DNA from: Escherichia coli
GTDB taxonomy: Bacteria > Pseudomonadota > Gammaproteobacteria > Enterobacterales > Enterobacteriaceae
DNA: 64,000 bases
Reading direction: 5' to 3' (one strand)
Assembly (NCBI RefSeq): GCF_013122565.1
Contig: NZ_CP053258.1
Each line of letters opens with the position of its first letter. Within the stretch, counting starts at the first letter, position 1. Shown one piece after another: positions 61,302 to 64,000 of the stretch. Made by a program: the position numbers and the translations under genes. The notes below the pieces were generated by a model. It had not been told where the DNA came from. It was given only the letters and a program-made list of their open reading frames with translations, and ran no database searches.

Positions 61302-64000
61302 TTACCACTGAATACCGGCACCGAGTGCGGCGGAGTATTCACCCTGGCTATTGGTACTACCTTGTAATTTGTAGACCCAACGACCATTGGCGCTCACCAT
61401 CGACACACCTAAAGCAACTGCCGATTCACCGTTGTAAGTACCGCCACCAATAGAGGCCATGCTGGCACCTGGAGTGTAAGCCTGCGGCAGACCGGTCATT
61501 GCCATTGCAGAAGCGATACCACCGCTCAACTTGCTTTCAGTTTTAGACAGTTTGTTATCCATCTCAACCATCCGCTGATCGGTGTATTGCTTCGTTTCCT
61601 GCACGCTTTGCTTCAACTGCGCGTAGTTCACCGCGTCGTTGTTGTTGACGCCAGCGGAGACGTTGCTGATACGAGTCGTACCGCCGTTGCCCCCACCGAG
61701 GGTGATATTGCTATAGTCAACAGAACCATCAGCGTTGGTGTCGTAACGTACACCGCCCGCCTCAGAAGACTTCAACTGTGCCACGTTAACCGCATCGGTA
61801 GCATTTTTACCTGCAGCTACGTTGGTGATACGACGTTGATTGGTAGAGGAACCAACAGAGATCGTATTTTCTTCATCCGCCACGGAGCCTGCTCCCAGCG
61901 CGACGCTGTTATCTGCTGCAGCAATAGAACCAGAACCGATGGAAACGCTCTCTTCTCCTTGCGCGCTTGCTGCCGTACCCGTCGAATTAGCTTTAAAGTA
62001 TTTGGAATCACCGTTGACGACAATGGAACCAGACCCGTTCTCGATGTTGGTAATACGTGTATCAAGGCCGTTGATCTGATTCTCCATCCAGGCGATGTTT
62101 TGCGTATTTTGTGACACACGCTCATCCGTAACTTTCAGTTGACCCACGTTGACGGCATCGGTATCTTGCGAGCCCGCCGCGACGTTAGTGATCTGGCGCT
62201 GACCGTCTTCACTGCCCACAGAGAACTCACCCACTGAGCTCTGCGGCGCGTCCATGTTATAGGCGGTGTAACCAGTCTGTGCGCCACGGGTAGTTTGTGA
62301 ACCATTGCCCATCGCAATGCTGTTTGCATGGTTTGCACGAGCGTTGCTACCGATAGCAATACCATTGATAGCATCTGCCAGAACCAGCGTATTCAGGCCG
62401 ATACCAATCCCCGCATTGCCATTAACGACAGTTTTCGCTCCCATCGCCAGCGAGTCTTCCCCGACGGCCAGTGAGTCTTCTGCCGTTGAGTTGGCGTGGT
62501 AGTACTTGGTCGGTGTAGTTGTGACTGCACCAATCGCATTTTGCAGTTGGCGAACTGTAACGGCGTCATGGGCTTCTGAACCATCGGCTACGTTTATGAT
62601 TTGACGATATTTACCATCATCACCAATAGACAACGCGCCAAGCAATTCGCCGTCTGTGGTGTCATAACCAATAACAGCACCATTTCCCGTAATGCTGGTG
62701 TCACGAGAGCCTTTAACAATCACACGGCTGGAAACAGAGCTGCTACCCAGTGCAATACCGCCGTCGATGGTGCTATTGCTGTTTTGGCCGATGGCGACAC
62801 TGTTTGCGCCGGAAGCGCTGGCGTTATAACCCACCGCGGTTGCAGCCACGCCAGAGGCGCTGGCATCTTCAAAGGCCAGGCCGGTGTCATTAGTACGAAT
62901 ATAATTGACCCCTGCACCGTTTTCTTCGATATAAGCAGCACTGGTGTCACCGGCAATCTGGGTGATCAACATATTCGTGTCGTTCAATTGCGAGCCGTTT
63001 ACTGCATCGGTACTGCCAGCGGAAATATCACCTTTAGCGACATCGGTAACAACGCTATCGGTGCCACCGTGGCTGGCGCTAAATTCTCCGGTAGTACTTT
63101 CCCACATCAGGGCGTCGCCTGCTGAGCCTCCTGCTGAGACATCAATGGCGGCGAGGGCATCGCCAACGCTGGAGTATTCAGTACCATCAATGTTATAGGT
63201 TGGGCCGGTAAAGTTGCCGTTGGCGTCGACAGAAGCATTACCGCCGAAGTAGTCAGCGATGTCGCTGCTTAAGCTGTGAAGCTGGCTACCGTTAATGGCG
63301 TCGGTGCTGACAGAGGTTACCGCGCCAGCCATCACGTTGGTGATTTTGCTGGTAGCGGCAGTGCCATGCGCGGCGCTGAAGGCGTTGACACTGGAATCCC
63401 ACAGAAGAGCATCTTCAAGCGAATCGCTAACCGATGTATCAATCGCGTCCAGGGCGTCGCCAACGCTGGAGTATTCCGTACCATCAATGTTATAGGTTGG
63501 GCCGGTAAATTTGCCATTAGCGTCGACAGAAGCATTACCGCCGAAGTAGTCAGCGATGTCACTGCTTAAGCTGTGGAGCTGGCTACCGTTAATGGCGTCG
63601 GAGCTGGCAGAGGTTACTGCGCCATCCATCACGTTGGTGATTTTGCTGCTGGTGCCGGTGCCATGCGCAGCGCTGAAGGCGTTGGCGCTGGAGTCCCAGA
63701 GCAGGGCATCATCTTGCAGATCGGAAAGTGAATCGCCCAGGTTCGTGATGCTGATGGTGTTCGCCTGGATATTCGCGGTGTTCGTCGTAATTTCGGAGGT
63801 GTTCAACGCGATGTTGGAGGTGTTGGTCGCCACGTCCTCTTTTGTGGCGTTTAACTGAGAGCCATTAACCGCATCTTTACTGGTTGCAGAAATAACACCA
63901 TCTTTCACATTGATGATTTTGTTTTCTGCTACGGTACTGGCAATCGTTCCATCAGCATTTTTGACAATATAGCTGGCGCTGAAAGCCCCCCCGTTAGATG
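61302..64000 (-). CDS. trimeric autotransporter adhesin (EhaG/UpaG-like), C-terminal about 900 aa; 5' end lies outside the window
   Basis: Stop at 61302; C-terminus ...[35 protein letters not shown] is a YadA-type membrane anchor; upstream repetitive Ser/Thr/Gly/Asn/Ala-rich head/neck-like motifs ([14 protein letters not shown]); frame stays open to the window edge. Confidence 0.8.
63158..63751. repeat. Two tandem near-identical ~297-bp repeats inside the adhesin gene
   Basis: 63158-63454 and 63455-63751 align with few mismatches (gcrtcgccaacgctggagtattc...gaagtagtcagcgatgtc...gctaccgttaatggcgtcgg); encode two ~99-aa repeats [49 protein letters not shown]. Confidence 0.8.

Follow-up and report, generated by a model that had tools for sequence, protein, structure and literature searches.

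A tandem pair of predicted stalk modules in a rare UpaG/EhaG-type adhesin allele of Escherichia coli

The adhesin gene and its locus

EhaG and UpaG of E. coli and SadA of Salmonella are positional orthologues with variable passenger domains (PMC7247748), and all three have been reported to act in adhesion to matrix proteins or cells, in aggregation, and in biofilm formation (PMC12525524, PMC7247748). The domains of which such stalks are composed have been defined (PMC2373917, PMC7247746), the second of these sources tabulating them alongside the SadA PDB entries. A stalk of recurring FGG, coiled-coil, and DALL-neck modules is also found in BadA of Bartonella henselae, for which differences between strains have been ascribed to recombination among homologous stalk domains (PMC9602544, PMC8859334). 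The gene considered here has a stalk of this modular kind and lies at the end of the window, by which we mean the whole 64-kb stretch of E. coli DNA that was analyzed (contig NZ_CP053258.1). Three features frame the 3' part of the gene.

61302-64000, minus strand: 3' 2.7 kb of the adhesin gene (C-terminal 898 codons and the stop codon), from the open frame, Pfam, and identity to P0121
61305-61487, minus strand: YadA-like beta-barrel membrane anchor (PF03895; fragment residues 838-898; 69.5 bits, cut-off 22.7)
61128-61157, minus strand: hairpin resembling a terminator, about 145 nt past the adhesin stop codon, from a consensus scan only (1 site, with 0.7 expected by chance)

The minus-strand frame contains no stop between the window end and the codon at 61302-61304 that terminates it, and the gene runs about 1.2 kb past the window end. 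The 898-aa fragment is 100% identical to the C-terminal part of P0121 (WP_171460152.1 / QJU26385.1), an E. coli protein through which the full length is known to be 1299 aa; the 5' 1.2 kb of the gene is known through this identical protein and through the relatives L002 and L003. Pfam matches on the window fragment are YadA_stalk (1e-77), YadA_anchor (2.6e-19), and YadA_head (8.7e-15), with PF05662 scoring 257 bits in 8 stretches and PF05658 scoring 55 bits; in full-length P0121, PF05662 is found in 9 stretches and PF05658 in 16. Together with the open frame, these matches confirm the proposal in the preliminary description that the repeat lies inside an adhesin gene. Anchors of the YadA type contribute four strands per chain to a 12-strand barrel. 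Beyond the window end, residues 1-45 of P0121 match the ESPR extended signal peptide (PF13018, 50.5 bits). With anchor, head/neck/stalk passenger, and signal peptide all found, the product is predicted to be a trimeric autotransporter adhesin (type Vc secretion). Rfam gave no match inside the gene. Plus-strand ORFs of 84-174 aa overlap it and were taken as antisense by-products of the minus-strand gene.

Downstream of the adhesin gene lie lldP, lldR, lldD, trmL, cysE, and gpsA, and the lldPRD segment of the window is up to 98.4% identical to closed E. coli genomes. On the upstream side, the relatives L001, L002, and L003 have the order yibL, a DUF3251 (SadB-like) gene, the adhesin gene, and lldP, the same slot as that of UpaG, EhaG, and SadA. 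Genes at this locus in E. coli are annotated ehaG, upaG, or "YadA-like family protein." RefSeq genes annotated ehaG or upaG show 83-87% nucleotide identity to the window gene along its 3' 1.4-1.7 kb, and protein identity to those homologues is 70-74%. An ESPR signal, YadA-like heads, necks, DALL, FGG, and a YadA anchor are held in common with UpaG, EhaG, and SadA. By position and domain content, then, the gene is an allele at the E. coli upaG/ehaG locus and a positional orthologue of Salmonella sadA. Its protein, at 1299 aa, is comparatively short: most homologues have about 1500-1570 aa, and UpaG has 1778 aa (PMC12525524).

The gene is common, but the allele in the window is rare. In a set of 5.8 billion protein clusters, its only close relatives are P0002 and P0122, which are 98-99% identical and both 1299 aa long. 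The allele is absent from 5,426 closed E. coli genomes, where the best match has 86.7% identity over 67% of the query and where no repeat unit is more than 80% identical to the upstream unit described below (unit A). NCBIfam returned sub-threshold matches to other adhesin models only; because no model reached its cut-off, we consider the allele divergent.

A gene of 224-227 aa lies immediately upstream of the adhesin gene, past the window end, as seen in four relatives (L001 10676-11359, L002 5274-5957, L003 2274-2957, and L004 1783-2457), and is annotated DUF3251 in L001. Judged by its position, this gene may be a counterpart of SadB, a periplasmic lipoprotein that aids the display of SadA (PMC7247746).

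Extent and module structure of the repeat

A tandem repeat of about 297 bp, as had been noticed earlier, is present in the adhesin gene and is well above chance expectation. Tandem Repeats Finder (TRF) reports an array at 63141-63710 with a period of 297, 1.9 copies, 90% matches, 0% indels, and a score of 958, the sole large tandem array within the 64-kb window. A second repeat search agrees, pairing 63141-63426 with 63438-63723 (286 nt, 89% identity), and finds no inverted repeats in the adhesin region. Set in codon phase, the array resolves into two units flanked by relics of the same kind of module.

63414-63710, minus strand: unit A, the upstream 99-codon stalk module, protein residues 498-596 (unit HMM 197 bits; PDB 2YO2, E=1e-22)
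63117-63413, minus strand: unit B, the downstream 99-codon stalk module, protein residues 597-695 (unit HMM 194 bits)
62916-63116, minus strand: degenerate third half-module (DALMW..., DALL and neck) that leads into the next head domain (unit HMM positions 1-68, 30 bits)
63711-64000, minus strand: module preceding unit A, older and strongly diverged, with an HWD variant of DALL, a neck, and a long heptad coiled coil, truncated at the window end (unit HMM positions 2-88, 21 bits)

In this register, 42 of 297 nucleotides differ between units A and B (85.9% identity), 26 of these differences falling in the first 273 nt (90.5% identity). The last eight or so codons of unit B (63117-63140) are dissimilar to unit A. 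At the protein level 15 of 99 residues differ, the codon differences comprising 18 synonymous and 15 non-synonymous changes, and the longest exact run common to both units is 41 bp. These identities are direct pairwise counts; the MAFFT mean column identity of 92% is a different quantity and should not be read as pairwise identity. The copies had previously been placed at 63158-63454 and 63455-63751 and called near-identical, with only a few differences. Those frames are shifted by about 41 bp from the true register and take in unrepeated sequence at 63711-63751. Compared exactly as placed, they differ at 48 of 297 positions (83.8% identity), an alignment that upholds the repeat but not the near-identity, which fails equally in codon phase and in the best-aligned part.

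Each 99-residue unit begins with a DALL connector, continues through a neck and a short coiled coil, and closes with an FGG insertion, and the motifs DALLWD, ITNV..G....DAINGSQL, and YFGG can be read in both. A phmmer search against PDB sequences matched the unit to the SadA fragments 2YO2 (E=1e-22, at residue level), 2YNZ, 3ZMF, and 2YNY and to 3WPA of Acinetobacter AtaA; 2YO2 contains the FGG, DALL, and neck of SadA. Alignment to these solved fragments places the repeat in the stalk, as the preliminary description had it, and each unit is predicted to be one DALL-neck-FGG stalk module of the daTAA dictionary type, in which a DALL motif precedes a neck of the DAVNxxQL type and the coiled coil carries an FGG insertion. 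An HMM built from units A and B finds five matches in the full protein: the two strong ones, a degenerate one after them, and two older, diverged ones before. Within the diverged upstream module, TRF reports a 21-bp period at 63777-63830 on the minus strand (7 codons, 2.6 copies, 72% match), which encodes NT.NI... heptads of a polar-core coiled coil.

With three chains together, each unit would add one DALL-neck-coiled-coil-FGG segment to the fibre, amounting to about 8 nm if length scales as in SadA, where 1461 aa span about 108 nm (PMC7247746). With a unit length of 99 codons, a change in copy number cannot switch the gene off, and the repeat is therefore not a phase-variation device. A phase-variable contingency repeat was accordingly rejected as a candidate: the frame is kept on gain or loss of the 297-bp unit, and TRF finds no simple-sequence tract in the repeat region.

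Age of the units and exchange between them

Between units A and B, dS is about 0.34 and dN/dS is 0.13 (91 codons; dN/dS range 0.13-0.18). Both units are under purifying selection, and they therefore appear to function within the fibre. Among strains with this allele, the adhesin gene has a dS of 0.02-0.06, and lldD has one of 0-0.12 between strains. A comparison of three alleles (the window, L002, and L003) shows that the units cluster by position, with 1-10 sites differing between A units, 3-8 between B units, and 40-48 between A and B, and 36 A/B differences are fixed over all three. Because a dS of 0.34 stands against 0.02-0.06 and because these differences are fixed, the duplication long predates the three alleles and is not recent, contrary to what had been suggested from the apparent likeness of the copies. 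A recent, near-identical segmental duplication is ruled out by the same two observations together with the presence of two copies in all three alleles.

The two units have not diverged evenly over their length. The dS value is 0.89 over codons 1-21, 0.16 over codons 22-84 (Fisher p=0.005 between these two segments), and saturated over codons 85-99. The simplest reading of this pattern is that units A and B are old paralogues with a homogenized centre, and it could stem in part from replacement of the unit ends through recombination with other alleles. Two patches, located by the three-allele comparison, bear on exchange between the units.

63180-63233, minus strand: patch in unit B, unit nt 180-233, in which L002 holds unit-A states
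63510-63530, minus strand: patch in unit A, unit nt 180-200, in which 7 sites in 21 nt set the window apart from both relatives

In L002, unit B has unit-A states at unit nt 180, 182, 185, 193, and 233, and the flanking sites 149 and 254 stay B-type. It equals unit A at 7 of 7 sites of nt 180-200 and also at nt 233, and all four gametes are seen between site 149 and sites 180-193. These sites mark a conversion tract of 54-104 bp from unit A in unit B of L002. In the other patch, the window's unit A has the unit-B state at 4 of the 7 sites.

Recombination has a second level, between strains. The three alleles are mosaics (window 61302-64000 compared with L002 6001-9900 and L003 3001-6900): differences specific to the window cluster at 63510-63849, and those specific to L002 fill 61404-62391. 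L003 equals L002 in the 5' part and equals the window exactly over the 3' 1.3 kb (61302-62690), and lldD is identical between the window and L002, yet dS in the adhesin gene is 0.063. This arrangement points to between-strain recombination inside the adhesin gene. The intergenic regions of the window and L002 differ in length by 15 bp.

Taken together, the repeat is best explained as an old in-frame tandem duplication of one stalk module in a rare 1299-aa upaG/ehaG allele, the centres of the two units having been kept alike by conversion; we give this reading a probability of roughly 0.85. Occasional short gene conversion would keep the centres of A and B similar, a form of concerted evolution. 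Exchange may proceed by unequal crossing-over or by replication misalignment. The shared 41-bp run slightly exceeds the minimal processing segment that Shen and Huang reportedly found in 1986 for recombination by the RecA-dependent route in E. coli. Rearrangement of closely spaced tandem repeats by replication misalignment, independent of RecA, is also possible. At 10-14% divergence, any recombination between the units should be slow, and mismatch repair reportedly stabilizes diverged tandem repeats in E. coli, with a strong effect at such divergence (Lovett and Feschenko 1996).

Misassembly is known to arise from repeats in adhesin genes, and the preliminary description had warned of assembly collapse. 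That the pair is a false duplication, or the collapsed remnant of a larger array, is nevertheless a very remote prospect. The units carry 42 differences, both keep the reading frame under purifying selection, the two-unit structure recurs in P0121 and, separately, in two draft assemblies, and exact runs reach at most 41 bp, which is below ordinary read length. On these grounds a false or collapsed repeat is unlikely, and the agreement of three separate assemblies on two units speaks directly against the collapse that had been feared.

Copy number across the family and other features of the window

All three known members of the allele are database proteins of 1299 aa with two units, and no variant with one or three units was seen among the top protein matches. 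The two-copy state thus appears stable in the window's allele, for which only three members were found in the databases searched.

Other members of the family show a different picture. The closest array to A and B is found at the same locus in a YadA-like adhesin of Pseudocitrobacter corydidari, P0001, whose units are 67-76% identical to A and B in amino acids and likewise distinguish internal from terminal unit ends. P0001 differs from the window gene in having four units (three in the related P0005) instead of two, and its units are 88-94% identical in DNA, with exact common runs of 71-89 bp. P0001 and P0005 are 99.7% identical save for one clean indel of a 98-aa (294-nt) unit of the same type as A and B. 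P0005 comes from a short-read metagenome contig assembled at k=141, and because the exact runs of 71-89 bp are shorter than this k, collapse is not an obvious cause of its three-copy state. In ordinary E. coli alleles a single unit of the first FGG-bearing type ("u1") precedes two further unit types, whereas the window allele has two u1 units. The number of copies of the A/B unit type is therefore 1 in ordinary E. coli alleles, 2 in the window, 3 in P0005, and 4 in P0001.

A second kind of array is found in the E. coli PapRG-06-5 adhesin (L001 8645-9352) and in P0003, P0014, and P0070, with a period of 234 nt (78 aa) or 71 aa. The modules of these arrays, 3 to 8 in number, combine DALL, neck, and coiled coil but lack FGG, and the arrays are the source of the one 71-aa module by which the E. 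coli proteins P0079 (1496 aa) and P0008 (1567 aa), otherwise 99.9% identical, differ. Among 63 full-length homologues, 22 different lengths occur, from 1299 to 1572 aa. Over longer times, arrays would thus gain and lose whole units in frame, so that stalk length differs between lineages; judged from these comparisons, the process holds for the family, and it is known in kind, with BadA as a published precedent (PMC8859334, PMC9602544). Length variation by gain or loss of units, which had been proposed for this gene, is accordingly borne out by the 98-aa and 71-aa indels and the 22 lengths in the gene family but not for the A/B pair, where the expected variation in copy number was not encountered.

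One could still argue that the duplication is recent and that the pair is an active recombination substrate, with a copy number that varies among strains carrying the window's allele. In principle, recombination could act on adjacent direct repeats of 297 bp, related alleles do show indels of unit size, and the conversion tract in L002 shows that the copies interact. Against this stand the overall dS of 0.34, rising to 0.89 at the 5' end, the 36 fixed differences, the longest exact run of 41 bp, and the two copies in 3 of 3 carriers, to which the stabilizing action of mismatch repair may be added. We judge this account improbable. The likeness to BadA has its limits: BadA has about 30 domains and flanking pseudogenes that act as a recombination reservoir, whereas the window gene has two similar units and, unlike BadA, no pseudogene copies were seen here.

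The unit ends raise another possibility. The end of unit A resembles the internal units of P0001 (..S.S.S[LM]E), and that of unit B resembles the P0001 terminal unit (AAID......G). Units A and B might therefore descend from ancient internal-type and terminal-type modules of an array held in common with Pseudocitrobacter, conversion having later made their centres alike, in keeping with a dS that is high or saturated at the unit ends and 0.16 in the centre. However, A and B are mutually the closest units (85% in amino acids), ahead of the four P0001 units, and these in turn rank before the ordinary alleles of E. coli and E. albertii, whose first FGG-bearing unit is 62-69% identical. We regard this descent as possible but doubtful, and it is more a refinement of the best explanation, an old tandem duplication with a converted centre, than an alternative to it.

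More speculatively, and on balance rather unlikely as a whole, the locus may present a copy-number series of 1, 2, 3, and 4 homogenized by conversion, in which a short allele could tune fibre length or avidity, for example against the thickness of LPS or capsule, and the window's allele might have come by recombination from a donor outside E. coli.

The repeat is an ordinary feature, a known phenomenon in a known and well-characterized adhesin family, and its value lies mainly in annotation: this E. coli strain carries a rare, short UpaG/EhaG allele in which one stalk module is duplicated. In adhesins of this kind, the length of the stalk and the number of its modules can influence how far the protein extends beyond LPS or capsule and how avidly it binds matrix proteins. 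DALL-neck motifs of BadA take part in fibronectin binding (PMC9602544), and the second unit may add a beta-hairpin surface of that kind. Because module number can affect reach and avidity and because UpaG is discussed as a vaccine antigen (PMC7247748), allelic variation in modules is relevant to typing and antigen design, a principle that is already established.

Elsewhere in the window, a tRNA-Sec gene, which we take to be selC, lies at 3363-3453 on the minus strand (Rfam, 83.8 bits), and the GC content of the surrounding 2-kb bin is lower (0.44). The selC gene is a classic integration site of pathogenicity islands. A JUMPstart RNA element is found at 31327-31365 on the plus strand (Rfam, 55.2 bits); JUMPstart is an RfaH-dependent antitermination signal upstream of LPS core and capsule operons. 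Just downstream of this element, 8 kb at 34001-42000 have low GC (0.31-0.36 compared with about 0.52 elsewhere) and may represent the waa cluster of LPS core genes. This low-GC segment includes two short tandem repeats rich in AT (37712-37750 and 40823-40872).
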